A stretch of 64,000 nucleotides of DNA from Berkelbacteria bacterium GW2011_GWE1_39_12 (GTDB lineage Bacteria > Patescibacteriota > UBA1384 > UBA12157): NCBI GenBank assembly GCA_001029735.1, contig CP011213.1, positions 591,929 through 655,928 on the forward strand. The letters run 5' to 3'. The translations under genes and the position numbers were made by a program. Shown here in pieces: positions 2,133-62,780 of the stretch. The stretch's first letter is position 1, and each line of letters opens with the position of its first letter. The notes beneath the pieces were generated by a model. The model searched no databases, was not told the DNA's origin, and worked only from the letters and a program-made list of their open reading frames with translations.

Positions 2133-4134
2133 TTTACCGATTTCAAATTTGTTAGGTGTCGGTCCTAAAATGGCCGAAAAATTAGAAAGGTTGGGGATAG
2201 AAACTATCCGCGATCTTCTTTTTTATTACCCTCGAACTTACGATGATTTTACAAATCCTGTGCCAATCAAAAGTTTAAGAATTGATGACGAAAAAATCAT
2301 TAAAGCCAAGATTATTAAAATAAGCGAGGCCCGAACGAACCGCCGGTGGATGAGCTTAATTAAAGCCAAATTGGCAGACGAAACTGGTGAAATTGAAGCC
2401 GTTTGGTTTAATCAATCCTTTTTATTAAATGTTTTAAAAGAAGGTAGTGAATTTTTGTTTTTAGGCAAAGTGCATTGGGATTTTAAAAATAAGAAGAAGA
2501 ATTTTACTGTTACTAGCTATGAAAAAGAAGCGAAAATACTACCGGTTTACGGTGAAACCGAAGGTTTAACCAGTAAATTTTTGCGTAAATTGATCGAACC
2601 TTTGCTCGAAAAATTTTCTATCGTTGACTATTTGCCTGACGAAATTAAAAAGGAGCAAAGCTTAATTGATTTAGCCAGCGCAGTTAAAAACATTCATTTC
2701 CCAGCTACGAATGATCAGATGCATGCGGCCAGACGGCGCATTGCTTTTGACGAATTGTTTTTCATTGCTTTAAAAATGCAAGAGGCTAAAAAAGAGCTGT
2801 CTGTTTCACGTGCGCCAAAAATAAAATTCGATGAAAATATTTTAAAAAATTTTGTGAATGACTTGCCGTATAAATTAACAAACGCACAAAGAAAAACGGC
2901 ATGGGAAATAGTCCAAGATTTAGAAAATAGTCGGCCGATGAATCGTTTATTGGAAGGCGATGTCGGTTCCGGCAAAACCGTAGTCGCTGCGATGGCGGTA
3001 TTAACTACGGTTAAGGCTGGCTTCCAAGCAGTTTGGTTGGCGCCAACAACGATTTTGGCTAATCAGCATTACCAAAATGTTTCAAAATTATTAAAAGATA
3101 TTAAAGTAGGTATTTGGACGGCCGGCAGTAAACTGGCAGATTTTAAAAACGATGATTTAATTATTGGTACCCACGCCTTGGTGCAAAAAGGTGTAAACTT
3201 TGATCGCTTAGCCTTGATTATTGTCGATGAGCAACATCGTTTTGGTGTAAAACAACGAGCCTTTTTGAAGGAGGGTGCCTTTAAAAAAAATGACACAGTC
3301 CCACACTTTCTTTCGATGACAGCCACGCCGATTCCGAGAACTTTAGCCCTAGCTTTTTATGGTGATTTAGATCTATCGATTATCAATGAAATGCCAGCGG
3401 GCCGCCAAAAAGTCATTACGAAAATTGTGCCTCCAAAAGAACGTAATCAAGCATATGATTTTATTAAAAACCAAGTTGAAGCTGGCCGACAAGTCTTTGT
3501 CATTTGTCCTTTAATCGACGAAAAGGTTTCATCAGATCGTTTATTGGACGTGGATAGAAAATCAGCGGTTAAGGAGTATGAAAAGCTTTCAAAAAAAATA
3601 TTTCCGCAGTTCAAGGTTGGTCTTTTACATGGCAAGATGAAGGTGTCGGAAAAAGACGAGGTGATGCAAAAATTCAAAAACAAAAAGATTGATATTTTAG
3701 TTTCCACAGCCGTAGTCGAAGTTGGCATCGATATTCCCAACGCTACTGTTATGATGATTGAAGATGCGGAGCGTTTCGGTTTAGCTCAACTTCATCAATT
3801 TAGAGGTCGTGTGGGTAGAGGCAAAGATCAGTCATATTGTTTAATTTTCTCCGAGAGCTGGTCGGATTCGACGAAAAAGCGCTTAAAAGCGATGATCACT
3901 TGCGACAATGGTTTTGACCTAGCAGAAATCGATTTGGATTTAAGGGGTCCAGGTGAATTCACGGGATTTTGTCAATCAGGTTTACCGGACTTGAAAATGG
4001 CCTCACTTTCAGATAGAATAATGATAGAAAAGGCCAAGGTGGCAGCAGAGAACGTGGTTAAAAAAGGCATCGAAAATTATCCAAAGCTATTGGAAAAATT
4101 TAAAGAATTTGCTATCACTAAGCATTTGGAATGA
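2122..4134 (+). CDS. recG: ATP-dependent DNA helicase RecG
   Basis: Walker A 'GDVGSGKT', the 'DEQHRFGV' motif, an N-terminal wedge/OB region and the 670 aa length all fit RecG. Confidence 0.85.
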   Translation: MNYDLPISNLLGVGPKMAEKLERLGIETIRDLLFYYPRTYDDFTNPVPIKSLRIDDEKIIKAKIIKISEARTNRRWMSLIKAKLADETGEIEAVWFNQSFLLNVLKEGSEFLFLGKVHWDFKNKKKNFTVTSYEKEAKILPVYGETEGLTSKFLRKLIEPLLEKFSIVDYLPDEIKKEQSLIDLASAVKNIHFPATNDQMHAARRRIAFDELFFIALKMQEAKKELSVSRAPKIKFDENILKNFVNDLPYKLTNAQRKTAWEIVQDLENSRPMNRLLEGDVGSGKTVVAAMAVLTTVKAGFQAVWLAPTTILANQHYQNVSKLLKDIKVGIWTAGSKLADFKNDDLIIGTHALVQKGVNFDRLALIIVDEQHRFGVKQRAFLKEGAFKKNDTVPHFLSMTATPIPRTLALAFYGDLDLSIINEMPAGRQKVITKIVPPKERNQAYDFIKNQVEAGRQVFVICPLIDEKVSSDRLLDVDRKSAVKEYEKLSKKIFPQFKVGLLHGKMKVSEKDEVMQKFKNKKIDILVSTAVVEVGIDIPNATVMMIEDAERFGLAQLHQFRGRVGRGKDQSYCLIFSESWSDSTKKRLKAMITCDNGFDLAEIDLDLRGPGEFTGFCQSGLPDLKMASLSDRIMIEKAKVAAENVVKKGIENYPKLLEKFKEFAITKHLE

Positions 4135-4565: not shown

Positions 4566-5162
4566 ATGGGTGAAATACTAAATGAATCAGTTGGCCAGAT
4601 TACCACAAAGACCCTTAGCGATGTTGAACCGACTGCTTTTTGTAGCTCAACGATAATATTAAATCCTGAACATTTAAGAGAAGTAGTCGAGGAACCATTA
4701 ATTCCCGCTTGCGAAATTTTATACCAAAAAAATATCGAGACGGCAGATAGCTCTGCTAATAATAAAGATATCAGATCCGGTGGGGATGCGAGAATTTGTA
4801 TCAATTGGGATTCTTTATCTGAGGAAAACAGAAAAATTGTCGAAGGCTTGGGTTTGGAGCCTGTACCCTTTAATAATTTCCAGGTAGTAATATTACAAGA
4901 ACCGATTGAAGAAAAAACGACAGTTCAGGAGCTTTCAAACAAGTTCACAGAAAAAGCAAACATGTTCTTATTGCAAGAGCCAAAATGGATTCCAAGCTTT
5001 ACAATGGATGACTTAAGAAAAGAATATGGATATAGTGAAAGTGATGAGAGCACGCCAGAAGATTTTGAACAAGATTATTATGATCAAGAGTCAAAGAGAT
5101 TTTATTTGAGTGAAGATCATTATCGTAAAGTAAAGGAATGGGAAGATAGTCAAGTTAAATAA
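4566..5162 (+). CDS. hypothetical protein with acidic C-terminus
   Basis: Long ORF translationally coupled to comEA. I recognise no motifs. Confidence 0.4.
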   Translation: MGEILNESVGQITTKTLSDVEPTAFCSSTIILNPEHLREVVEEPLIPACEILYQKNIETADSSANNKDIRSGGDARICINWDSLSEENRKIVEGLGLEPVPFNNFQVVILQEPIEEKTTVQELSNKFTEKANMFLLQEPKWIPSFTMDDLRKEYGYSESDESTPEDFEQDYYDQESKRFYLSEDHYRKVKEWEDSQVK

Positions 5163-5167
5163 TTTAT

Positions 5168-5251
5168 GCCCGGGTGGTGAAATGGTATACACGCCAGTTT
5201 TAGGAACTGGTGTCGAAAGACGTGGAGGTTCGAGTCCTCTCCCGGGCACCA
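5168..5251 (+). tRNA. tRNA-Leu (anticodon TAG), class II with long variable arm, CCA encoded
   Basis: Hand-folded. Acceptor GCCCGGG pairs with CCCGGGC; anticodon stem CCAGT/ACTGG; loop TTTAGGA; variable arm GGTGTCGAAAGACGTG; T-arm GGTTCGAGTCC. Confidence 0.85.
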
Positions 5252-5286
5252 ATGCAATAATAATCCAATGATATTTTATGACCGAT

Positions 5287-5329
5287 GGTGTCGAAAGACG
5301 TGGAGCTAGTTGTCTAAAGGCGGGCACCA
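5287..5329 (+). pseudogene. degenerate copy of the tRNA-Leu(TAG) 3' portion (variable arm plus acceptor end, T-arm replaced)
   Basis: A 19-nt exact repeat GGTGTCGAAAGACGTGGAG and the terminal CGGGCACCA recur 36 nt downstream of the intact tRNA. Confidence 0.6.
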
Positions 5330-5349
5330 AAAAATACAAGGAATAACCA

Positions 5350-5676
5350 ATGATTAATTACGATGATTTCTCAAAAATTGAAGTTAAGATCGGCAAAGTT
5401 ATAAATGCTGAAAAGGTGCCGGAAACTGATAAGCTATTAAAATTAGAAGTCGATTTTGGCGAAGAAACCAATCGCACGATCGTATCAGGCATTGCCCATG
5501 CCATTAATACAGAAGATATTATCGGTAAAGAGGTCCCATTTGTTGTTAATCTTGAACCAAGAACTATTCGCGGCATCGAAAGCCGAGGCATGATTATGGT
5601 GGCAATTGATGCAGAAGAAAATCCAGTTCTGCTAAATCCATCAAAAGAAGTGCCGCCGGGTTCACTTGTAAGATAA
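5350..5676 (+). CDS. tRNA-binding domain protein (CsaA/Trbp111-like; EMAP/MetRS C-terminal OB fold)
   Basis: The N-terminal segment 'DFSKIEVKIGKVINAEKVPETDKLLKLEVDFGEE' is the characteristic tRNA-binding OB motif. Confidence 0.75.
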   Translation: MINYDDFSKIEVKIGKVINAEKVPETDKLLKLEVDFGEETNRTIVSGIAHAINTEDIIGKEVPFVVNLEPRTIRGIESRGMIMVAIDAEENPVLLNPSKEVPPGSLVR

Positions 5677-16783: not shown

Positions 16784-16833
16784 AAAATTTGATTAATTTG
16801 TAATTGTTAGTTAATATGGCCCTAGAATAAAAA

Positions 16834-16855
16834 GTCAAGCAATGCTTGGCTTTTT
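16834..16855 (+). terminator. putative intrinsic terminator downstream of tRNA-Leu(CAG)
   Basis: GTCAAGC-AAT-GCTTGGC hairpin followed by TTTTT. It overlaps the first ATG (16842) of the purH ORF, which argues for a downstream start. Confidence 0.4.
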
Positions 16856-16886
16856 ACGTATCTCAAAACTTGAGGAGGAATGGGTG

Positions 16887-18581
16887 ATGATTGCGGTAAG
16901 AGCAAAGAAAAAGAGAGATCCGTACAACATGTCTCTGCAGAGTCTACTGAAGTTCAAAAAGATCGCTCTTGTCTCGGTTTACGACAAGACTAATCTGGCC
17001 GAACGAGTCAGACGTCTGACCAAACAAGGCTACGGCATCCTTAGTTCTGGCGGAACAGCCAAGATGCTACGGGAAAACAAGATTCGCGTCTGTGATGTGG
17101 CAACACTTGTCGGTGGCGGCGCGATTTTAGGCCACAAGGTGGTAACCCTGTCGCGTGAAGTCCATGCGGGTCTATTGGCTGCCGATTGTGAAATCGAGGT
17201 ACTAGAACAGCTTGGCATTCCGCGTATTGATCTGGTAGCGGTTGATCTATATCCTCTTGAGGAAGAAATCGCCAAACCTGATTGCACCCGTAAGAGCGTC
17301 ATCGAGAAAACAGACATCGGCGGACCAACTATGCTTTCTTCGGCAGCCAAAGGTGGACGGATCGTTATTAGTATTCCCGAAGACTGGGAGCCGACGTTGA
17401 CTTGGATCGAATCGGGTTGCCCGGATTTCGACGAAACTGTCAATGCTCAGCGAGCCAAAGCCGACTATGTTGTCGCCAAGTATCGATTGCTTTCGGCGAA
17501 TTATCATAGCGGCGGCATCTACGCCGGCGTGATTGGGCGCAAGGTCAGAGACTTAGCCTACGGCGAAAATCGTGACCAGTCTCCGTCAGCGCTCTACGAA
17601 GAAGATCCGACTGATTCCCTTGGTATGGGTAAATTTGATGTCTTAACAGGTGATCCCAGTCACATTTCTGTCGCCGACGGAGACCGTGCGCTCGGAGTGA
17701 TGTGCGCGGCGGCCGATGCCTTCCGTCTCAACTGCAATGCCGTGCCTTTCATCGCCGTTGCCTGTAAGCACGGCGCTCCATGTGGCATCGGCGTGTCCTT
17801 TGAAACAAGGAACACCGCTCTCGAGAGAGCGCTGATGGGAGATTCGATCGCAGTAATGGGAGCGGAGGTAATGACCAACTTCGCGATCGATGAAGATCTC
17901 GGGAGACTGCTTTACGAAGTGCCAGAGTCACTTCGTGCTCAAGTTGGCTGTAAGTACTGGGGTATCGATGTACTTTACGCTCCTGCAGTTGACGATGCTA
18001 CCATTGATCTCCTCGGCAAAAAAGAGCGTCGACGCATCTTGGTCAATCCGGCGCTTATCTATCCATTCAGCTCCAAGCAGGAGCTGATGGGAAGACCGGT
18101 CCGTGGAGGGTTCCTCAGTCAGAAAGCATACCACTTCATCCTCGATCTTCACGATCTTCATTTACCGCTAACGGCGGGAATGAATGACGATCAAAAGATT
18201 GACGCCATTATCGCTTGGGCTGCATGTTGGCGATCTGTCTCCAATACCGTTGCTTTGGCAAATGATGGCACGCTTATCGGTCTTGGTTGCGGCCAGCAAG
18301 ATCGCATTGCCTGCGTTGAGCTATGCCTGAATCGGGCTAAACGCTCTGGTCATAACACCAATGGCTCGATGTTTGCCTCCGACGCTTTCTTCCCGTTTGC
18401 CAAGAGGAAACGTGAAGAAGATCCGTTAGAAGGACCGGAAATTCTTATCCAGGCTGGCTGCGCCGGCGGCATAGTACCCCATGATGGTAAGAACATAGAA
18501 GAGGTAAGTGCGCTTTTTGATGAGCATAAACTGCTAGTAGGATATCTTCCGTCGATTCACCGTGGCTTCTTCGGCCACTAA
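16887..18581 (+). CDS. purH: bifunctional AICAR transformylase / IMP cyclohydrolase (PurH), GC-rich
   Basis: MGS-like domain 'ALVSVYDKTNLAERVRRLTKQGYGILSSGGTAKMLRENKIRVCDVATLVGG...DLVAVDLYPL'. AICARFT motifs 'LAYGENRDQ', 'ASDAFFPF' and C-terminal 'HRGFFGH'. Start chosen at the ATG preceded by GAGGAGG; 16842 and 16929 are alternatives. Confidence 0.8.
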   Translation: MIAVRAKKKRDPYNMSLQSLLKFKKIALVSVYDKTNLAERVRRLTKQGYGILSSGGTAKMLRENKIRVCDVATLVGGGAILGHKVVTLSREVHAGLLAADCEIEVLEQLGIPRIDLVAVDLYPLEEEIAKPDCTRKSVIEKTDIGGPTMLSSAAKGGRIVISIPEDWEPTLTWIESGCPDFDETVNAQRAKADYVVAKYRLLSANYHSGGIYAGVIGRKVRDLAYGENRDQSPSALYEEDPTDSLGMGKFDVLTGDPSHISVADGDRALGVMCAAADAFRLNCNAVPFIAVACKHGAPCGIGVSFETRNTALERALMGDSIAVMGAEVMTNFAIDEDLGRLLYEVPESLRAQVGCKYWGIDVLYAPAVDDATIDLLGKKERRRILVNPALIYPFSSKQELMGRPVRGGFLSQKAYHFILDLHDLHLPLTAGMNDDQKIDAIIAWAACWRSVSNTVALANDGTLIGLGCGQQDRIACVELCLNRAKRSGHNTNGSMFASDAFFPFAKRKREEDPLEGPEILIQAGCAGGIVPHDGKNIEEVSALFDEHKLLVGYLPSIHRGFFGH

Positions 18582-18606
18582 GATCGAAGATCTCAAACTT
18601 ATTGTC

Positions 18607-18632
18607 AGGCTGGATTTTTTCCAGCCTTTTTA
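18607..18632 (+). terminator. rho-independent terminator after purH
   Basis: GGCTGGA-TTTTTT-CCAGCC hairpin followed by TTTTT. Confidence 0.65.
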
Positions 18633-18651
18633 AATACAAAGACATAAAGCC

Positions 18652-18680
18652 TTGAAGTAATACCTGTTAAATGTTACAAT
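18652..18680 (+). promoter_or_regulatory. sigma70-like promoter upstream of purB
   Basis: TTGAAG, a 17-nt spacer, then TACAAT. A GGGGAGG RBS lies before the ATG at 18729. Confidence 0.45.
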
Positions 18681-18728
18681 CCAAGCGTCTGAAATAGGGG
18701 ACAATATGTTTGGGGAGGTTCGTTAACA

Positions 18729-20096
18729 ATGTTAAGTAGGTATTCATCAAAACAAATGCAAGCCCTTTGGGGCGAGCGTTCAAAGTGGTCGCTGATGCTC
18801 CTGGTTGAGTTAGCCTACATAAAGGCGAAAGCTCAACTTGCGTATCTGCCAATGAGTCTCTATGAGCAGTTTCGCAAACACTCAAAGTTCACGCTGAAAC
18901 GGATCGATGAAATTGAAAACGGTCCGGAAGGTACCGGACATGATGTCTTGGCGTTTGTGAAAACGGTCCAAGAATCGCTGAGGAAAGCGGGGGTTGAACG
19001 TGATGGCGAGTTCCATAAGGGCCTGTCTTCATACAATGCGCAAGACCCCGCGAATATGCTCCGTCTGCGAAAAGCTAATGGGTTAATAATCGAAGCGTTG
19101 TACAAGCTGTACAACAGTTTGAAGAGCATGTCTTTGAAACATAAATGGACTCTGATGCTGGCCTATACTCATGTCCAGGACGCAGAACCGACGACTTTCG
19201 GGCACTTGCTGGCAAACTATGCTTTTCAAATCCGACAGAGGATTCACAAGCTTGAGCGAATCATGGAGGAAGATCTCTGTTGGGGCAATATGGGAGGTAC
19301 AGTTGGCACCTATGCCGGAATTGATATAAAGGTTGCCGAGTTGGCGCTGAGTGAGCTTGGTCTTAAGCCTCGTATTGACACTCAAATCATTTCTCGTGAT
19401 AATCATGCGGAGTTCATGTGTGAATTGGCGATCATCGCCGGTGTCATTGAAGAGATGGCGCGGACTTTCCACATCAGGATGCACAGTGCTATCCATGAAT
19501 TGGAAGAGCCGAAGAAGAAAGGTTATCGTGGCTCCTCGGCAATGTCACATAAGAGAAATCCGAACCTGACCGAACAATTGTTTGGCCTAGCTCGACTGAT
19601 TCGTGCCGCAGCTATGGCAGCTCTGGAGAATATTGAAACGCTGGATTATAGGGACATTGCACAGTCGATCGTCGAGCGTCACATTTTCCCAGATGCTACA
19701 TCTTTGGTTCATCATGCGGTGACGAAGATGACCAAGCTGGTCGAAGGTTTGGTCGTATGTACAGACAGAATGAAGGAACGCGTCGAAGTGGATTCACTCG
19801 GCGTTTGGGCTACGCAGCAGGTAAGAATAGCACTGATGGATGCTGGCGTCTCGTATGACGAAGCATATCTTTACACACAAGCCTGTGCATTTCAGGCTGT
19901 GTCTGAGAAGCGCCACATACTGGACGTCATGTGTGTCAAAGAAGTCTCGGAGACCAACAAAAACACCGCCGATGGTGTCTTGGGTGTAGATAAGTTAAAG
20001 AGCTGTTTCGACGCCAAGAGTTATATCGAATCCGGCATTGAATACAGTTTCACCAAGGCGTTTCCTGAGCTAACAGAAATAAGCGCAGCGGTGTAG
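18729..20096 (+). CDS. purB: adenylosuccinate lyase (PurB), GC-rich
   Basis: Fumarate-lyase signature 'GSSAMSHKRNPNLTEQLFGLARL' and an N-terminus 'YSSKQMQALWGERSKWSLMLLVELAYIKA' typical of PurB, at 455 aa. Confidence 0.8.
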   Translation: MLSRYSSKQMQALWGERSKWSLMLLVELAYIKAKAQLAYLPMSLYEQFRKHSKFTLKRIDEIENGPEGTGHDVLAFVKTVQESLRKAGVERDGEFHKGLSSYNAQDPANMLRLRKANGLIIEALYKLYNSLKSMSLKHKWTLMLAYTHVQDAEPTTFGHLLANYAFQIRQRIHKLERIMEEDLCWGNMGGTVGTYAGIDIKVAELALSELGLKPRIDTQIISRDNHAEFMCELAIIAGVIEEMARTFHIRMHSAIHELEEPKKKGYRGSSAMSHKRNPNLTEQLFGLARLIRAAAMAALENIETLDYRDIAQSIVERHIFPDATSLVHHAVTKMTKLVEGLVVCTDRMKERVEVDSLGVWATQQVRIALMDAGVSYDEAYLYTQACAFQAVSEKRHILDVMCVKEVSETNKNTADGVLGVDKLKSCFDAKSYIESGIEYSFTKAFPELTEISAAV

Positions 20097-20129
20097 AACA
20101 AAGGCGAACAAAATACGAAAGAAAAAGGA

Positions 20130-21470
20130 GTGGAAACGGAAATGATCAAATACGAAAAGGGCGAAATGATCAGCGAAGGGAAGACCAAACAGGTCTTCAA
20201 GGTGGTGGGACATCCCGGTTTGGTAATCATAAGGGCTAAGGACGACATCACTGCTTTCGATCAGGCAAAGTACACGAAGCAATTTCCTGGCAAAGGCATC
20301 TGCTCTACTACGATTACCTGCCGTGTTTTTGAACTGCTAAAGGCAGCCGGAATACCGGTGGGGTATCGTGAACAGCTTTCGGAGCGGGAATTCCTGGCCG
20401 AGGAAGGCACGATGATTCCGCTTGAAGTAATTGGGCGGCGCTGTGTTGCACCGGAAAGCAGTTGCCTGAAGCGGACACCTCAGATCGATCCGAAATCTAT
20501 TGACCCCGTGATCCGTCTGCCGAGGCTTTCTGTGGAGTTCGACCTCAAGACGACGGGAGGCGGCTTCATAGATCGATTCGGTGATCGGGTGGAGCTTGGA
20601 TTGAACGCTGAGCGCAAAGAGGAAGATCCACTGATCGAAGATCCTTATTCTCAAGAATGGCAGTTGCTGCACAGCAAAAAGCCCGCTTGGGAGGATGGGG
20701 CTCGGCTTGGATCCGTTCAGCGTGACCAGGTCATTTCGGACATAGCATTGATCGACAAAATGGATGATCTGACACGCCGGCTGTTCCTGGTTCTCGAAGG
20801 TATGTGGAAAATGCTCGGCTACCACATCCTCGACATCAAAGTCGAATACGGCTTCAACGCTCGTGGCGAATTGATGTTGTTTGATGTTATCGATGCCGAC
20901 TCCTGGAGACTGCGCGACCGGAAATGGGAAGACTTCAGCAAGCAGTCTTTCCGAGACGGTCAGGACCTGGATCGAGTTGCCCGCAAGTTCTGGATTGTCG
21001 CTGACAAGATCCAGCAGTTTGCCATTCCGGATCAGACTCTTGTGGTTTGGCGCGGTTCCGATAAGGATAGCTGGCCTTTGGCGCCAGAATCATATGAGGA
21101 CGTGCCGAATCTTAAGATCGAAATGGTCACGCTTTCAGGGCACAAGCAGACTGGGATGTGCCTCGACAAGCTCAACGATCTGCAGCGCGACTATCCTTCA
21201 GGGGTAATTCTTGCGGCAGTTGGCATGAGTAACGGGCTTGGCCCTGTCTTGGCCGCCCACTCTGTCTGGCCGGTGATTGGAATGCCAGCAACGGCGAAGG
21301 AATTTCCTGAAGACGTCTGGAGCAGTCTTCGGACACCGTCGCAGACCCCAATGCTTGTTTGTCTAGAGAAAAACGCTGTTAATGCAGCACGGAATCTCTT
21401 GGCACTCCAAAACCCCGTACTGTATATGAAACAGCAGCGAGCGGTCGAAGAACTTGATCGCTGTGCATAG
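20130..21470 (+). CDS. fused SAICAR synthetase (PurC, N-terminal) and AIR carboxylase/PurE-like (C-terminal) protein; PAICS-like domain order
   Basis: N-terminus 'EGKTKQVFKVVGHPGLVIIRAKDDITAFDQAKYTKQFPGKGICSTTITCRVFELLKAAGIP' is a PurC signature. C-terminus 'LVVWRGSDKDSW...SGHK...GVILAAVGMSNGLGPVLAAHSVWPVIGMP...NAVNAARNLLAL' is a PurE fold. Confidence 0.7.
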   Translation: METEMIKYEKGEMISEGKTKQVFKVVGHPGLVIIRAKDDITAFDQAKYTKQFPGKGICSTTITCRVFELLKAAGIPVGYREQLSEREFLAEEGTMIPLEVIGRRCVAPESSCLKRTPQIDPKSIDPVIRLPRLSVEFDLKTTGGGFIDRFGDRVELGLNAERKEEDPLIEDPYSQEWQLLHSKKPAWEDGARLGSVQRDQVISDIALIDKMDDLTRRLFLVLEGMWKMLGYHILDIKVEYGFNARGELMLFDVIDADSWRLRDRKWEDFSKQSFRDGQDLDRVARKFWIVADKIQQFAIPDQTLVVWRGSDKDSWPLAPESYEDVPNLKIEMVTLSGHKQTGMCLDKLNDLQRDYPSGVILAAVGMSNGLGPVLAAHSVWPVIGMPATAKEFPEDVWSSLRTPSQTPMLVCLEKNAVNAARNLLALQNPVLYMKQQRAVEELDRCA

Positions 21471-21486
21471 AGTATGTTTCACGTAG

Positions 21487-21520
21487 GAGTCAGCCTTTTA
21501 GGCCGGCTCCTTTTTAATTA
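21487..21520 (+). terminator. putative terminator after the purC-purE fusion gene
   Basis: GC-rich imperfect hairpin GGAGTCAGCC..GGCCGGCTCC followed by TTTTT. Confidence 0.4.
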
Positions 21521-21631
21521 CTTTACATTTCTAATAGATCGGCTTATCCACAGCCTTTTGCTGTATTTTTTTTTAATTTATGTGTTACTTTGAGGTGGGA
21601 GTACTTTTTATAAACTAATAGGGACCGGAGG

Positions 21632-23092
21632 TTGGAAATGAGTGGAGAACTACATGAAGAATGCGGAGTATTTGGGATTAGCGCTGAAGGCGAAGACGTT
21701 GCTAGATTAACCCATGCAGCCATACTTTGGTTGCAACATCGAGGGCAGGAATCGGCCGGTATTGCTACATCAGATGGTCAAGAAATTAGGTTGCAGAAAC
21801 AAGATGGTAGAGTTGACCATTTTACAGAAGAACAAATGGTTATGCTAACCGGTAAGAATCCGTTGGCCATGATGGCTATTGGTCATAATAGATACTCTAA
21901 CACTGGTGGAAATATCTATGAAAACTTTCAACCATTTGTGGTTCAAACTTCATTAACTCCACTAGCTTTGGCTCACAATGGGAATTTGGTTAACCCTGAT
22001 GCTATTGCAAAAAAGTTGAAAGATCTAGGTGTTACGCCTCAGGGCTCATCTGATAGCGAATTGATTGCTTTGTTAATTGCAGCGGAAAGTCAGAATGCAT
22101 CGAGTATTGAAAAAGCAATCGAGCTTACCATAAAACAATTGGTTGGTGCTTATTCATTAGTGATAATGACTAAGGATCAATTGATTGGCGTTCGTGATCC
22201 GTGGGGCATCAGACCGCTTAGCTTGGGTCGACTTAATGATCATCATTATCTTTTGGCTTCAGAAACCTGTGCAATAGAGGCTGTAGGTGGTAGTTTATTC
22301 AGAGATCTGGAACCCGGAGAAATGGTTGTAATTGACAAAGGCGCTGAGCCAAGATTTTCTCAAATATTGCCAAAACAATGCAAAAAACTCTGTATTTTCG
22401 AGTTTATATATTTTGCTTCTCCAGGAAGCATTATGTATAATCGTTTGTTGCAAACTGCCAGACGTCATATGGGAGAAATGCTCTGGAAAGAATTTCCTCT
22501 CAAAATAGATAATCCTGACGAATGGGTAGTTGGCGGCGTGCCAAACACAGGTCTTCCAGCAGCTCAAGGATTTGCCGAAGCCTCTGGACTTGAGTTTCGT
22601 AATATTATAGTCAAAAATCCCTATGTTTTTCGAACGTTCATCCAACCAGATCAACGACTCCGAAAACTTGGAGTTAAGGCCAAGCTATTGCCTCTTCCTC
22701 GCGAAGTCATGAAGAAAAAAGTGATTTTGGTTGAGGATTCGATTGTTCGAGGTAATACCTCGGGTGAGATTATTGAAATGCTTCGTAAAGCTGGTGCCAA
22801 AGAAGTGCACATGATGATTTCTTCGCCGCCATATATACACCGCTGTTACATGGGTGTAGATACTCAATATAGTAGCGAGTTGATTGCTGCCCAAAAGTCG
22901 ATCGAAGAGATCCGACAGTTTATCAAGGCTGATTCATTAAGCTACCTCTCGTTGCCTGGACTCATTGCTGCAATCAATAAGGAAAAATACGAGGAACCAA
23001 TCCCGCCAGGATCTTTCTGCGACGCCTGTTTCACAGGTAAGTATCCTTTCCCCATCCCTCAGGAAGAGGGAAGATTCGAGCTGAGCGCTTGA
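21632..23092 (+). CDS. purF: amidophosphoribosyltransferase (glutamine-PRPP amidotransferase, PurF)
   Basis: A propeptide precedes the catalytic Cys ('EECGVFGI'); 'IGHNRYSNTGG'; PRTase motif 'VILVEDSIVRGNTS'; C-terminal Cys pattern. Its composition is closer to the host than the three genes upstream. Confidence 0.85.
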   Translation: MEMSGELHEECGVFGISAEGEDVARLTHAAILWLQHRGQESAGIATSDGQEIRLQKQDGRVDHFTEEQMVMLTGKNPLAMMAIGHNRYSNTGGNIYENFQPFVVQTSLTPLALAHNGNLVNPDAIAKKLKDLGVTPQGSSDSELIALLIAAESQNASSIEKAIELTIKQLVGAYSLVIMTKDQLIGVRDPWGIRPLSLGRLNDHHYLLASETCAIEAVGGSLFRDLEPGEMVVIDKGAEPRFSQILPKQCKKLCIFEFIYFASPGSIMYNRLLQTARRHMGEMLWKEFPLKIDNPDEWVVGGVPNTGLPAAQGFAEASGLEFRNIIVKNPYVFRTFIQPDQRLRKLGVKAKLLPLPREVMKKKVILVEDSIVRGNTSGEIIEMLRKAGAKEVHMMISSPPYIHRCYMGVDTQYSSELIAAQKSIEEIRQFIKADSLSYLSLPGLIAAINKEKYEEPIPPGSFCDACFTGKYPFPIPQEEGRFELSA

Positions 23093-23100
23093 GTTCAATT

Positions 23101-24655: not shown

Positions 24656-24730
24656 GCCTGGGTAGCTCAGTGGTAGAGCACATGACTGAAAATCATGGTG
24701 TCGGCAGTCCGATCCTGCCCCCAGGCACCA
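24656..24730 (+). tRNA. tRNA-Phe (anticodon GAA), CCA encoded
   Basis: Acceptor GCCTGGG pairs with CCCAGGC; D-arm AGCTCAGTGGTAGAGC; anticodon stem CATGA/TCATG with loop CTGAAAA; T-arm GGCAGTCCGATCCTGCC. Confidence 0.85.
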
Positions 24731-24793
24731 GTTTCTTATGAGTAGCAATAGATGATTTTCGTTGGCTGGTTGAATTTGGTCTGTCTTTCGACA

Positions 24794-24835
24794 GACCCTG
24801 CCCGCGTGCTGCTGCAGGCACCAGTTTCTATCTTG
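24794..24835 (+). pseudogene. degenerate copy of the tRNA-Phe 3' end plus 6 nt of its 3' flank
   Basis: CCCTGCCCGCGTGCTGCTGCAGGCACCAGTTTCT matches CCTGCCCCCAGGCACCAGTTTCT at the tRNA 3' end. It is preceded by a perfect 8-bp hairpin at 24778-24797. Confidence 0.55.
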
Positions 24836-24939
24836 TACCGCGTTCAGATAAATATTAATTACTGACGAGATTTTTTGCATAGCAAAGATTACCCAACGCG
24901 GAAAGAAAAATATAGCCAAGCTTTCCTTGTCGCGAAAAT

Positions 24940-25395
24940 TTGCGAACAATTATGAAAACATTTTCCAACATTGCTATGGGCAAACTATTTCGTCCAGATT
25001 ACATCTTTTCGGCCACACCGCCGGCAAATGGTTTGTATATTTATCTGCTGATTGTTTTTGGTTTGATGATTGTAATTGCAATTTTGCTGGCGTTTTTCAA
25101 ATCAAAGTTAGAAAAAATATATCTAAAACTGCAAAACAGAATCTTTAATCTACTGCTGACACTTGGAATTATTGGTTTATTCTTTGTACTTTTCCGCTAT
25201 GAACAAATTCCATATTTCGGCAGTCGACTAATGATCCTGCTTCTACTTTTAACTTTTCTTTTTTGGGGCGGCTGGATCGCATTTTATTGGATCTTTGAAA
25301 TCCCGCAAGAAAAATTAGAAGCACGTAAGAAGCAAAAATTTATCAAATATTTGCCGCAAGCCGCGAAGCGGAAAATTCGCGGGTCAACCCGGTAA
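24940..25395 (+). CDS. hypothetical membrane protein (3-4 TM helices)
   Basis: Hydrophobic translation. The real start may be the second ATG, at about 24952. Confidence 0.4.
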   Translation: MRTIMKTFSNIAMGKLFRPDYIFSATPPANGLYIYLLIVFGLMIVIAILLAFFKSKLEKIYLKLQNRIFNLLLTLGIIGLFFVLFRYEQIPYFGSRLMILLLLLTFLFWGGWIAFYWIFEIPQEKLEARKKQKFIKYLPQAAKRKIRGSTR

Positions 25396-25437: not shown

Positions 25438-26574
25438 ATGGCAAAAGAAGGTAGCGACAAGATTCAAGAGATTACGACAATGAAGGATCTAGCGGAAAGT
25501 TTTTCTAACCGTTTGGTCCCGTTTAAGAATGGGGAAATTATTGAGGTTAAGGTTCAAGAAATCCTCAAGAGCAAAATTGTGGTCGATGTGGCCGGATTTT
25601 GTGTAGGAATCATTCCTGAGAGAGAATTTTCACCGGATATGAGCGAAGTAAAAGTCGATGAAAAGATTTTGGCTTACGTTTTGACTTTAGAAAATTCAGA
25701 AGGAAACTGTATTTTGTCTTTACGACGCGCAGACAAAGAAAAAGTTTCCAAAATTTTGGACGAGAAATTTACCGCTGGTGGTGTACTGACGGTTAAGTGC
25801 AGCGATGCTAACCGTGGTGGACTTCTTTGTTCCTTTGGTGATTACGAAGGTTTCTTACCAGTTTCTCAGTTATCTTCATCTCACTATCCAAAAGTTTCTT
25901 CGGGCGACAAAGAAGAAATTTTGGGTAAGCTTCGCCAATTTGTTGGACAAAATTTTCAAGTTAAAATCTTGTCTTTTGAGCCAGCCAATAATAAATTAAT
26001 CTTTTCTGAAAAAGCAGCTGGTGATATTGTTCAACAAGAAAAAATAAAAAAATATAAAGTTGGGGACGAGTTAGACGGGGAAATCACTGGTATTGTTGAT
26101 TTCGGCTTATTTATTAATTTAGGTGAGATCGAAGGCTTGGTCCACATTAGTGAAGCCGCTTGGGAGCATGTCGAAAGTTTGAAAGATTTATTCAAAGTTG
26201 GCGAAAAAGTTAAAGTGGTTATCATCTCAATCGAAAATAATCGTATTTCGCTTTCAATTAAACGATTAACCCCAGATCCTTGGATTAAATCAGTTGAAAA
26301 ATATAAAATTGGAGCCGATGTCAAAGGCGAAGTAACGCGTATTACTCCTTATGGCGCTTTTGTTTCTTTGGGTGAAGTTGGTGGCTTAGTTCACGTTTCC
26401 GAAATGGGTGAAAAAGTAACCAACCCGTCTGAAGTATTGGAAGTTGGAAAATCGTATAACTTTAAAATCATTTCAGTTGAACCGGAAATTCATAAACTAA
26501 GTCTTTCGATGAAAGACTCGGGCGCGCCTAAAGAAAAAAAGTCTGCCAAAAAAAGCACCAAAGAGGAGAAATAA
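25438..26574 (+). CDS. rpsA: 30S ribosomal protein S1 (four S1 domains)
   Basis: Repeated S1 OB motifs 'GDELDGEITGIVDFGLFINLGEIEGLVHISE' and 'GADVKGEVTRITPYGAFVSLGEVGGLVHVSE'. Confidence 0.8.
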   Translation: MAKEGSDKIQEITTMKDLAESFSNRLVPFKNGEIIEVKVQEILKSKIVVDVAGFCVGIIPEREFSPDMSEVKVDEKILAYVLTLENSEGNCILSLRRADKEKVSKILDEKFTAGGVLTVKCSDANRGGLLCSFGDYEGFLPVSQLSSSHYPKVSSGDKEEILGKLRQFVGQNFQVKILSFEPANNKLIFSEKAAGDIVQQEKIKKYKVGDELDGEITGIVDFGLFINLGEIEGLVHISEAAWEHVESLKDLFKVGEKVKVVIISIENNRISLSIKRLTPDPWIKSVEKYKIGADVKGEVTRITPYGAFVSLGEVGGLVHVSEMGEKVTNPSEVLEVGKSYNFKIISVEPEIHKLSLSMKDSGAPKEKKSAKKSTKEEK

Positions 26575-56691: not shown

Positions 56692-57040
56692 TTCAACAAA
56701 TCGTCAAGAAATCACCCTGGGTCTTATCGGTGTTACGGCAAGTTCTGAGACTATAAAAACGGAAAAACAATCTGAAAATTTGTTGCCGGCCTTAAATAAG
56801 TTTCTATCGAAAAATAATATTCAATTAGCGGATTTAAAGGCTGTTTTAGTTAACATTGGTTCGGGCTCCTATACTGGAGTTCGCATCGGCGTTACCGTCG
56901 CTAATACATTAGGCTGGAGCCTGGATCTTCCTGTTTTTGGTTATAATCTAACTAATTTAAATGAAAATATTGCTCTCGCCAATAAAGCGCCCCAGAAATT
57001 CAACCAGCCAGTTCTGCCCACTTATTTAGACAAAAAATAA
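56675..57040 (+). CDS. tsaB: TsaB/YeaZ-like protein (short)
   Basis: 'ILQIDSTNRQEITLGLI' and 'GSGSYTGVRIGVTVANTLGW' match the TsaB N-domain. It is only 121 aa. Confidence 0.6.
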   Translation: MILQIDSTNRQEITLGLIGVTASSETIKTEKQSENLLPALNKFLSKNNIQLADLKAVLVNIGSGSYTGVRIGVTVANTLGWSLDLPVFGYNLTNLNENIALANKAPQKFNQPVLPTYLDKK

Positions 57041-61831: not shown

Positions 61832-61979
61832 TGTATTTATTATATCATATAAGTTTTTTATTAATTTTAAGCATCTTAGGCCTAAAAAAGCCTAAATATT
61901 AAGTATAAAATTACTATCTCAAGCTTGTTTTTTTTGTGTTTAAAACCAACAAAAAATTGGGGACTATGGCGTCTACATA

Positions 61980-62082
61980 CTAAAGGCGACCGGATTCATT
62001 TCGGAAAAGCAGAGGCGGTATTGGCCGAAGGCCACCAAATACGAAAAAACACTACCTTAAGTAGTGAATTTCCAAATGGCGG
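61980..62082 (+). repeat. direct repeat copy 2, overlapping the last 6 nt of tRNA-Asp
   Basis: CTAAAGGCGACCGGATTCATTTCGGAAAAGCAGAGGCGGTATTGGCCGAAGG...GAATTTCCAAATGGCGG. Confidence 0.8.
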
Positions 62083-62154
62083 GCTCGACCGGATTCGAAC
62101 CGGCGATCTCCTCCGTGACAGGGAGGCGCTTTGAACCGGCTAAGCTACGAGCCC
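62077..62154 (-). tRNA. tRNA-Asp (anticodon GTC), CCA encoded
   Basis: Reverse complement reads GGGCTCG-TA-GCTT..AAGC-G-CCTCC-CTGTCAC-GGAGG-AGATC-GCCGGTTCGAATCCGGT-CGAGCCC-G-CCA. Confidence 0.8.
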
Positions 62155-62185
62155 GTACACAAATACAATCTATTCAATTTTACTT

Positions 62186-62272
62186 CGGGCTCTTGTTCTT
62201 TGCTGGTTCAAAGCAAGCTTTGAAACCGGTAGATCCTTCGGAATTCGTCAAAACCGAAAAAGCTACGAGCCC
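62186..62272 (-). pseudogene. degenerate tRNA-Asp-like copy adjacent to, and upstream in tRNA sense of, the intact tRNA-Asp
   Basis: It shares CGGGCTC, CTTTGAA(A)CCGG and AAGCTACGAGCCC with the tRNA, but the middle is replaced and expanded. Confidence 0.5.
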
Positions 62273-62373
62273 ATAATTTTCTCAGTTCAAGATAGATCAT
62301 ATCACAAAAAGACTATTATTTCAACTCTTATTCTTCCATTTTAAGGTTAAATTTGCTACAATCATGATATAAA

Positions 62374-62453
62374 GCGGGTATGGTTTAGTTCAGAACGTGA
62401 CCTTCCCAAATTTTGCGCAGGTATAGTTTAGTGGCAAAATGCGTCCTTCCCGG
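62374..62453 (+). pseudogene. two tandem degenerate 5' halves of tRNA-Gly(CCC) (acceptor-D arm-anticodon loop TTCCCAA/TTCCCGG)
   Basis: GCGGGTATGGTTTAGTTCAGAACGTGACCTTCCCAAA and GCGCAGGTATAGTTTAGTGGCAAAATGCGTCCTTCCCGGA. Compare the tRNA 5' half GCGGGATTAGTATAGTGGTAATATGTATCCTTCCCAAGG. Confidence 0.6.
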
Positions 62454-62463
62454 ATTTATTGGA

Positions 62464-62537
62464 GCGGGATTAGTATAGTGGTAATATGTATCCTTCCCAA
62501 GGATAAGATGCCAGTTCGATTCTGGTATCCCGCTCCA
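62464..62537 (+). tRNA. tRNA-Gly (anticodon CCC), CCA encoded
   Basis: Acceptor GCGGGAT pairs with ATCCCGC; anticodon stem TATCC/GGATA with loop TTCCCAA; T-arm GCCAGTTCGATTCTGGT. Confidence 0.8.
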
Positions 62538-62588
62538 ATAAATCTGCATGTAGGATGGTATGGCTTACCTGCTCCAGTAAAAATTTTC

Positions 62589-62663
62589 GCCCGGATAGCT
62601 CAGTGGTAGAGCAGTTCCTTCGTAAGGAAAAGGTCGGAGGTTCAAATCCTCTTCCGGGCTCCA
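62589..62663 (+). tRNA. tRNA-Thr (anticodon CGT), CCA encoded
   Basis: Acceptor GCCCGGA pairs with TCCGGGC; D-arm GCTCAGTGGTAGAGC; anticodon loop TTCGTAA; T-arm GGAGGTTCAAATCCTCT. Confidence 0.8.
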
Positions 62664-62681
62664 GCGAAAATTTAAAAGAAG

Positions 62682-62715
62682 AGGTCGGCAGTTCAAATCT
62701 GCCCATCGGCTCCCA
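62682..62715 (+). pseudogene. degenerate copy of the tRNA-Thr 3' portion (variable region, T-arm, acceptor)
   Basis: AGGTCGGCAGTTCAAATCTGCCCATCGGCTCCCA matches AGGTCGGAGGTTCAAATCCTCTTCCGGGCTCCA at the tRNA 3' end. Confidence 0.55.
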
Positions 62716-62780
62716 AACAATAAAAGAAAGTTAGGTTCCGTCTTTAGGCATTCATTCGACTCTCGGAAGCTCCGTAAATT

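Follow-up and report, generated by a model that had tools for sequence, protein, structure and literature searches.

A probable decaying duplicate of the tRNA-Phe 3' portion in Candidatus Berkelbacteria, and structured modules behind tRNAs of related loci

Introduction

In known integration scars at tRNA genes, the intact gene and its partial copy are separated by 9-23 kb (bioRxiv 10.1101/2022.07.05.498093). Group I introns reside in tRNA genes of Patescibacteria, including that of tRNA-Phe(GAA), which is interrupted at position 33/34 (PMC13011429), and multi-intron as well as split tRNA genes occur in archaea such as the Thermoproteales and Nanoarchaeum (PMC4090602). Furthermore, Theta ribozymes, which are HDV-like, are located downstream of phage tRNAs (PMC10879173).

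Here, we describe the region directly behind an intact tRNA-Phe gene in a 64-kb stretch of genomic DNA (the window, to which all coordinates without a locus designation refer). We propose that positions 24737-24829 are probably an incomplete second copy of the tRNA-Phe 3' portion in a state of decay, arranged in tandem and on the same strand as the intact gene.

Results

The tRNA-Phe locus

The window originates from a population of Candidatus Berkelbacteria (CPR/Patescibacteria) in Rifle groundwater, and contigs of the PRJNA268031 assemblies and GCA_003509005.1 encode its S1-domain protein (25438-26574) with 100% identity. Six independent assemblies of the population are identical base for base from -250 to +450 nt around the start of tRNA-Phe, indicating that the remnant behind the gene is not an assembly artefact. 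The conserved gene order comprises tRNA-Phe, a small membrane protein, the S1 protein, a metallo-beta-lactamase-fold protein and a DHH phosphoesterase, and the conserved membrane-protein/S1 pair (24952-25395 and 25438-26574) is located downstream of the remnant. While these downstream genes are conserved, the slot between tRNA-Val and tRNA-Phe is occupied by a different gene in every lineage examined, a GNAT gene in the window, PAP2 in L008, a Calx-beta protein in L011 and a hypothetical protein in L010. The content of this slot varies between relatives, and tRNA-Phe is its right-hand border.

With regard to the tRNA itself, the T loop of tRNA-Phe (24709-24715) reads UCCGAUC and thus carries a C at position 55, where a U is near-universal among tRNAs. 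The tRNA-Phe genes of L013, L176, L020, L105, L177, L049 and L055 have UCCGAUC or UCCGAUU, likewise with C at 55, and the usual UUCGAUU is present in other relatives, L008 and L011.

Sequence behind the intact gene

The window contains two copies of the 15-mer CAGGCACCAGTTTCT, spaced 93 nt apart, and the count does not change when two mismatches are allowed. The features of the region, all on the plus strand, are the following.

24656-24730, plus strand: intact tRNA-Phe(GAA) with encoded CCA (ARAGORN; Rfam RF00005, 67.3 bits)
24722-24736, plus strand: first copy of the direct repeat, consisting of the end of the acceptor 3' strand with ACCA (9 nt) and 6 nt of flank, GTTTCT
24737-24777, plus strand: A+T-rich sequence, either a spacer or that part of the putative second copy which has decayed most
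24778-24797, plus strand: perfect hairpin of 8 bp with a 4-nt loop, GGTCTGTC-TTTC-GACAGACC, abutting the T-stem remnant
24797-24803, plus strand: CCTGCCC, corresponding to the T-loop end, the T-stem 3' strand and the first acceptor base; identical to 24714-24720
24804-24814, plus strand: 11-nt insertion GCGTGCTGCTG within the acceptor 3' strand of the putative second copy
24815-24829, plus strand: second copy of the direct repeat, CAGGCACCA with GTTTCT, the 3' end of the putative decayed second copy
24830-24900, plus strand: downstream flank TTCAGATAAAT..ACTGACG..TTTTTT, orthologous to the flank behind the second copy of L176 (p<=0.001)

An initial annotation of this DNA had placed a copy of the last 16 nt of the tRNA and 6 nt of flank 93 nt downstream of the original. 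The recurrence at this distance is exact and beyond chance, but the true extent is shorter, with 9 nt of the tRNA (CAGGCACCA, 24722-24730, comprising the acceptor strand end, the discriminator and CCA) and 6 nt of flank. Its further observations are confirmed: the duplication is real and tied to the tRNA 3' end, the 8-bp hairpin is perfect, and the sequence noted to resemble the T-stem 3' strand is the CCTGCCC remnant.

A chance resemblance in A+T-rich intergenic DNA is extremely improbable. An exact 15-mer recurring within about 100 nt is expected approximately 0.016 times per 64-kb window of the same composition, and here it lies exactly at the end of a tRNA; in local alignments of the tRNA and its flank with the next 99 nt, the observed score was above 1000 of 1000 shuffles. 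What could be taken as chance is the 9-nt tRNA match without its flank, which is not significant (p ~0.1), as well as a different 15-nt exact match to the unit at 56996-57010, which we ascribe to chance. Perfect 8-bp hairpins are also common in the window (18 versus 9.2 in shuffles, and 5 versus 1.4 for those with at least four G/C), and the one at 24778-24797 is unremarkable by itself. However, fuller homologues reside at the same place in relatives (see below), by which this reading is effectively refuted.

The 78 nt between the repeat copies (24737-24814) contain no plausible ORF. Within the spacer, GAGTAGCAA at 24740-24748 is a sequence that is elsewhere seen directly after the tRNA CCA in front of type A elements of locus L107 (see below), and ATGATTTTC at 24752-24760 is the reverse complement of tRNA positions 34-42 in the anticodon arm; both matches are marginally above chance, with about 0.03-0.05 expected for each.

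Orthologous tRNA-Phe loci

Using an alignment query, 160 related loci around S1 homologues were gathered; a single S1 protein query gave none. Comparison of orthologous tRNA-Phe loci, as proposed in the initial annotation, revealed empty sites in four relatives and fuller versions in three. In L008, L011, L177 and L178, tRNA-Phe is followed by the membrane-protein gene within 9-45 nt, without a second copy. In the closest relative, L176, whose S1 protein is 85% identical, the intact tRNA-Phe is an allele different from that of the window and is followed by a 21-nt spacer and TGTAAATCATGGTGTCGGCAGTCCG, which matches the tRNA allele of the window at 24 of 25 positions and fits it better than the gene of L176 itself. 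Behind it, a T-loop insertion, CCTGCCCGC, a further insertion, CAGACACCA and a flank homologous to window positions 24843-24890 follow in this order.

The window and L176 have two insertion points in common, one in the T loop and one between CCTGCCC and CAGGCACCA. The hairpin at 24778-24797 aligns with the T-loop insertions in the second copies of L176 and L013, the insertion in L176 (GCATCCC...) is located at the same point as GCGTGCTGCTG of the window, and CCTGCCCGC at the T-stem remnant is common to both. Based on CCTGCCCGC and the two insertion points, both second copies are taken as one ancestral object. Their proposed homology draws on position, shared flank and shared insertion points in the sequences; compared to the tRNA, L176 and L013, the interior of the window's second copy is not significantly similar alone (best block 9 nt, p ~0.08), and we take it to be much more eroded than that of L176. 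As the fragment and the insertion points are shared, the structure is likely to predate the split of the two lineages rather than to represent a fresh 15-bp target-site duplication. L176 does not have the 15-nt duplication of the window.

Further variants are present in other relatives. In L013 (S1 protein 80% identical), a longer second copy starts from the D arm, carries three hairpin insertions, one of them with a UUCG loop, and ends in AGGCACCA and a duplicated stretch of 13 nt of flank. In L020, the 3' half of a window-like tRNA-Phe allele lies behind a 21-nt spacer, and the fragments of both L020 and L176 thus represent a different allele from the adjacent intact gene. In L110, a tRNA-Phe copy from position 10 onward is split by five G+C-rich hairpins, and L050 carries a further variant at tRNA-Phe. 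Two further apparent duplications, in L105 and L102, border scaffold gaps of 100 N; these are probably artefacts and were set aside.

Two of the related loci have an interrupted tRNA-Phe(GAA) gene, L010:3236-3519 and L050 ~1600-1867, in which an intron with group I hallmarks is located after U33 (33/34). The intron, about 215 nt long in L010, contains ...GAGAUAGUCC... and ends in G; ARAGORN missed the intron-bearing tRNA-Phe in both loci. In relatives, tRNA-Leu(UAA) separates the DHH phosphoesterase from the gene that follows; in L177, this place is taken by a small HNH-domain ORF (3075-3542).

Copy number and search for an inserted element

The initial annotation had suggested that the unit of about 90 bp might be a multicopy, MITE-like miniature element which had duplicated its target. 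Searches with blastn-short, which covered the 64 kb of the window and 920 kb from related loci, returned only the unit's own locus. A direct repeat flanks 24737-24814, but the unit lacks terminal inverted repeats, and in place of foreign sequence the interior appears to be a collinear, heavily decayed 3' part of the tRNA. Accordingly, a recent insertion of a 78-nt non-autonomous element behind the tRNA, with duplication of 15 bp of target, is unlikely. An exact 15-nt direct repeat across the tRNA/flank border, empty sites in four relatives and GAGTAGCAA at the start of the unit, as after the tRNA CCA before two type A elements of L107, would fit such an insertion; however, the end of the unit is derived from the tRNA and collinear with it, and the same fragment and insertion points in L176, there without the 15-nt duplication, mark the structure as old. 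The same comparison speaks against the fresh target-site duplication that had been proposed. That annotation had also named single-copy occurrence, absence from relatives and a repeat similarity at chance level as observations that would refute its view. The unit is indeed single-copy, but three relatives carry fuller versions and the 15-nt repeat exceeds chance.

Copies of tRNA 3' ends in related loci and in the window

For 144 tRNAs with complete flanks from the 160 S1 loci, the last 12 nt were searched within 300 nt, allowing at most one mismatch. The 3' end was repeated downstream on the same strand in 17 of them (12%), upstream in one, and on the other strand in none. The copies always run to CCA and start in the T loop (the majority, with copies of 16-21 nt), the anticodon loop or the D loop, and the gap is 56-198 nt in this set, the distance between copies being 21-230 nt when the locus is set against known att repeats. 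In the window, adjacent fragments are present at at least four further tRNAs, Leu(UAG), Thr, Gly(CCC) and Asp. For CPR, our literature search found no report on T-loop-antisense modules or on tRNA 3' ends duplicated at short range, and the recurrent pattern of partial 3' copies behind tRNAs is, as far as we could find, undescribed.

Behind tRNA-Leu(UAG) (5168-5251), a second copy of its positions 30-84 is located at 5252-5340, in which 20 identical nucleotides of the variable arm and ...GCGGGCACCA are kept and the T arm is replaced (alignment score 47 versus at most 22 in shuffles). Positions 61960-62720 form a cluster of tRNA scraps, inside which the scaffold of one assembly ends. This cluster includes the following.

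~62155-62275, minus strand: pseudo-copy of tRNA-Asp in front of tRNA-Asp, with the acceptor stem kept and a D-loop insertion
80 nt downstream of the tRNA-Asp gene: GAATCCGGTCG
62376-62409 and 62414-62453: two different 5' halves of tRNA-Gly(CCC), directly before the intact gene
62674-62713: 3' half of another allele, behind tRNA-Thr

Elsewhere in the window, at 16800-23100, a purine-biosynthesis block (purH-like, adenylosuccinate lyase, SAICAR synthase-AIR carboxylase fusion and amidophosphoribosyltransferase) has a G+C content of 46-49% in a 37% genome and looks horizontally acquired. It is located between tRNA-Leu(CAG) and tRNA-Leu(GAG); a single position distinguishes the last 18 nt of the two tRNAs.

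A recurrent double hairpin was observed directly behind tRNAs of related loci. In its first part the CCA is drawn into CCACGC-UNA-GCGUGG, and the second hairpin, GACGC-UUA-GCGUC, ends in ...CACCA and forms a mini-helix with a second NCCA end. It occurs at the following positions.

L010:3517-3556
L032:724-775
L036:1703-1745 and 1854-1875
L022:102-150
L026-L028
L030:1850-1895

Search for an integrated element

The textbook signature of att sites is an intact tRNA with, behind it on the same strand, a 3' fragment that reaches from a loop to the 3' end (bioRxiv 10.1101/2022.07.05.498093). The remnant might therefore be regarded as the scar of a classical integrase element, with the intact tRNA-Phe as attL, the 3' fragment as attR and an interior that was later deleted, and the fragment alleles of L176 and L020, which differ from the intact genes, are in line with this. 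However, an explanation of this kind appears improbable. The gap comprises 78 nt here and 21 nt in L176 and L020, as opposed to the kilobases of known cases, and the variable genes are found on the upstream side of the intact tRNA instead of between the two copies. The att model predicts a chimeric intact gene, whereas that of L020 differs from the fragment allele in both halves, as does that of L176 in the part covered by the contig (positions 19-76); moreover, with the short-range pattern at 12% of the tRNAs, many independent interior deletions would be needed. No integrase, transposase, reverse transcriptase or homing endonuclease was found among the Pfam-annotated genes across the 64-kb window, no recombinase, transposase, reverse transcriptase or endonuclease gene near the repeat copies, and no further tRNA-Phe fragment elsewhere in the window, and the att duplication considered in the initial annotation is not supported in its classical form. 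Pattern scans of IMG/VR with the type A and type B cores (see below) gave 0 matches and 2 irrelevant G+C-rich matches and hence no support for an origin from a phage attP.

Structured modules behind tRNAs of related loci

In many of the cases in which the copy starts in the T loop, the intervening DNA is a conserved G+C-rich module. Seven aligned copies of type A (alignment A3) fold into a three-way junction, in which a 5' guide pairs with the initial 7 nt of the copied tRNA 3' end to give P1. P2 reads GCC-GGAG-hairpin-CGA-GGC, and P3 reads GGUCGA-hairpin(AGCA)-GGUGACC with an invariant G-U pair. Compensatory changes occur in 15 of 29 pairs and 94.6% of the cells are paired, compared to 75.7% in shuffles; none of 500 shuffles reached any of the measures, and slid controls collapse. 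The many G-U pairs in the modules place the structure on the tRNA strand and point to RNA. The covariance model R1, built for type A, detects nine full copies and, in tandem, a truncated one; each of them is located directly behind a tRNA (Leu-CAG, Leu-GAG, Leu-UAA, Val-UAC or Phe-GAA), and none lies in the window. Type A ends in a 13-21 nt copy of the host tRNA 3' end, from C56 to CCA. The modules of type A are located as follows, and in L107 they are present behind all three tRNAs, once in tandem.

L107:1504-1612, 4969-5084 and 1093-1245
L023:1414-1529 and 1799-1914
L055:520-671
L106:915-1011
L028:92-188
L050:1947-2047

Types B (with GGGGUCGGGAAAC...) and C take the same position behind tRNAs and carry a T-loop-antisense guide as in type A.

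L100:1394-1507 and 1820-1935
L034:1521-1638
L031:755-931 and 1822-1944
L035 ~5403-5480
L099, minus strand, at the end of the locus
L039:4515-4671

In type B, the T loop of the copy contains a 45-nt insertion, in front of which the host T-stem 5' strand is found, and the covariation support, from five sequences, is weaker. Of the 15 elements of types A, B and C, 14 have an exact antisense match of 9-12 nt to their own tRNA, in its T loop and the adjacent stem, and the guides cover seven different T-loop sequences. The modules match no Rfam family, either at E<=1 on nine loci or at E<=10 on the isolated elements; ribozymes, riboswitches and group I introns known to Rfam were likewise rejected at E<=10 for window positions 24725-24960 and the isolated elements.

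RNA features of the remnant

At the remnant, two traits recall type A, a GGTC...GACC hairpin (24778-24797) adjoining the tRNA copy and a GAGTAG(C/T)AA spacer (24740-24748), each of them weak alone. R1 gave no match near 24656-24900 at E<=10, and the T-loop antisense GATCGGA or a similar sequence is absent from 24731-24829. The unit has no Rfam match, either with gathering cut-offs on the window or at E<=10 on 24725-24960, and neither ARAGORN nor the Rfam cloverleaf model calls a second tRNA in 24731-24960. The hairpin at 24778-24797 is not an intrinsic terminator, as it is followed by CTGCCCGCG and thus by no U-tract. A weak terminator-like site of 5 bp is located at 24806-24821, with 2.0 such sites expected in shuffles. 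The minus-strand RNA folds somewhat better than shuffles (z -3.5), which is without other support.

The region might alternatively act as a functional RNA, either as the 3' trailer of tRNA-Phe or as the leader of the membrane-protein/S1 operon, in which the hairpin and the second ...CACCA would serve processing, termination or protection. The clearly structured RNA modules at the same position in related loci, the second hairpin ending in ...CACCA that recurs behind other tRNAs, a 195-nt fold in which the tRNA 5' end pairs with the distal copy, and the weak terminator-like site would agree with such a role. However, we consider it quite unlikely: the folding energy on the tRNA strand is not unusual (z ~-1.5), the region is missing from four close relatives that have this operon, the remnants are separated by A+T-rich sequence that shows no conservation, and the region matches neither the type A model nor an Rfam family.

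Discussion

Our analysis suggests that 24737-24829 is probably what is left of a second, partial tRNA-Phe, based on the direct repeat, the collinear tRNA remnants, the fuller homologues and empty sites in relatives, and a pattern of tRNA 3' copies that extends across the genome and the lineage. The remnant is probably inert now and without a function of its own; at most, it would be passively co-transcribed as the 3' trailer of the tRNA. It seems likely that an insertion or recombination event took place at the tRNA-Phe gene, the border of the variable slot, in an ancestor shared with L176 and probably L013, and that this event left the intact gene together with a 3' fragment reaching from a tRNA loop to CCA and the flank. 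Later, hairpin-forming insertions would have entered the former T loop and a further insertion the acceptor strand, and most of the similarity of the fragment to the tRNA would have been lost. The terminal 15 nt may have stayed identical by retention, as the best-preserved end, or by gene conversion with the functional copy.

Some findings do not readily fit such a decay. The similarity of the interior is, as stated above, not significant alone, and the last 15 nt, including 6 nt of flank, are perfect as opposed to the decayed rest; this perfect identity fits a recent target-site duplication equally well. A perfect 8-bp hairpin is also odd for freely decaying DNA.

Three processes might have produced the decaying duplicate. 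Incoming DNA may have replaced the gene with one illegitimate junction in a tRNA loop, which would fit the mismatch between fragment and intact alleles in L176 and L020 as well as the variable upstream slot. A member of a module family that targets T loops or anticodon loops may have been located here and later decayed. The least consistent of the three is an att scar with deletion of its interior. Further conceivable routes are bulge-helix-bulge splicing, reverse transcription primed by a tRNA or templated by a tRNA fragment, with which the coincidence of copy starts and loops would agree, and homology-facilitated illegitimate recombination following the uptake of DNA.

As for the second process, it is tentatively possible, although not probable, that the remnant represents a degenerate member of a hitherto undescribed family of RNA modules linked to tRNAs in Berkelbacteria and related CPR, which reside behind an intact tRNA on the same strand and combine a guide exactly antisense to its T loop, a covariation-supported three-way junction or related core and, reaching from the T loop to CCA, a fresh repeat of the tRNA 3' end. 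The likeness of the remnant to type A is weak, consisting of the GAGTAGCAA spacer motif and a GGUC...GACC hairpin abutting the copy; a guide is missing and R1 does not recognise it. The occurrence of the modules behind Leu, Val and Phe tRNAs, with the guide retuned for each host, would imply mobility and selection on RNA pairing. In this reading, the modules might be new small intron-like or ribozyme-like elements which insert into the T loop while restoring the gene, or, alternatively, RNAs which exchange or repair tRNA 3' ends. Should the modules be mobile or catalytic, they would give an element a new and harmless route into essential tRNA genes, or represent a new RNA with tRNAs as its target, and would explain tRNA-fragment annotation errors and contig breaks that cluster at tRNAs in CPR metagenome bins. 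The decaying duplicate, for its part, identifies tRNA-Phe as a border of recombination, in a streamlined genome of the CPR without visible mobile-element genes.

Comparison with known systems

With the att repeats of prophages, ICEs and islands, the locus shares an intact tRNA with a partial 3' copy on the same strand from a loop to the 3' end, empty sites in relatives, and a tRNA at the border of variable gene content. It differs in the short gap instead of kilobases, in the absence of integrase or cargo between the present copies, in the position of the variable genes on the other side of the intact tRNA-Phe, in the intact gene of L020, which is no chimera, and in a repeat which in the window extends 6 nt past the tRNA. 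MITEs and CIMEs, the latter being cis-mobilizable remnants of integrative elements, are similarly small, gene-less and flanked by direct repeats, but the present unit is single-copy, has no terminal inverted repeats and has an interior that appears to be tRNA-derived.

Phylum and gene are those of the Patescibacteria group I introns, one of which is carried by L010 and L050 in tRNA-Phe at this locus, and the second copies of L176 and L020 start at about position 33-36. In contrast, the tRNA of the window is uninterrupted, and its extra sequence is located behind the gene and has no group I core according to Rfam. As in the multi-intron and split tRNAs of archaea, the copies in L013 and L110 consist of ordered tRNA segments with G+C-rich hairpins at D-, anticodon- and T-loop positions, a likeness in the order of the segments; unlike these tRNAs, the copies belong to bacteria, lack the 5' acceptor strand and have an intact gene adjacent. 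Similar to Theta ribozymes, the type A and B modules are structured RNAs directly behind tRNAs and presumably co-transcribed with them, whereas they have no HDV-like or any other Rfam match and consist of a three-way junction, a T-loop-antisense guide and a duplicated tRNA 3' end. The remnant is probably a known kind of tRNA-fragment scar in a new variant, and the structured modules may be something new in their own right.
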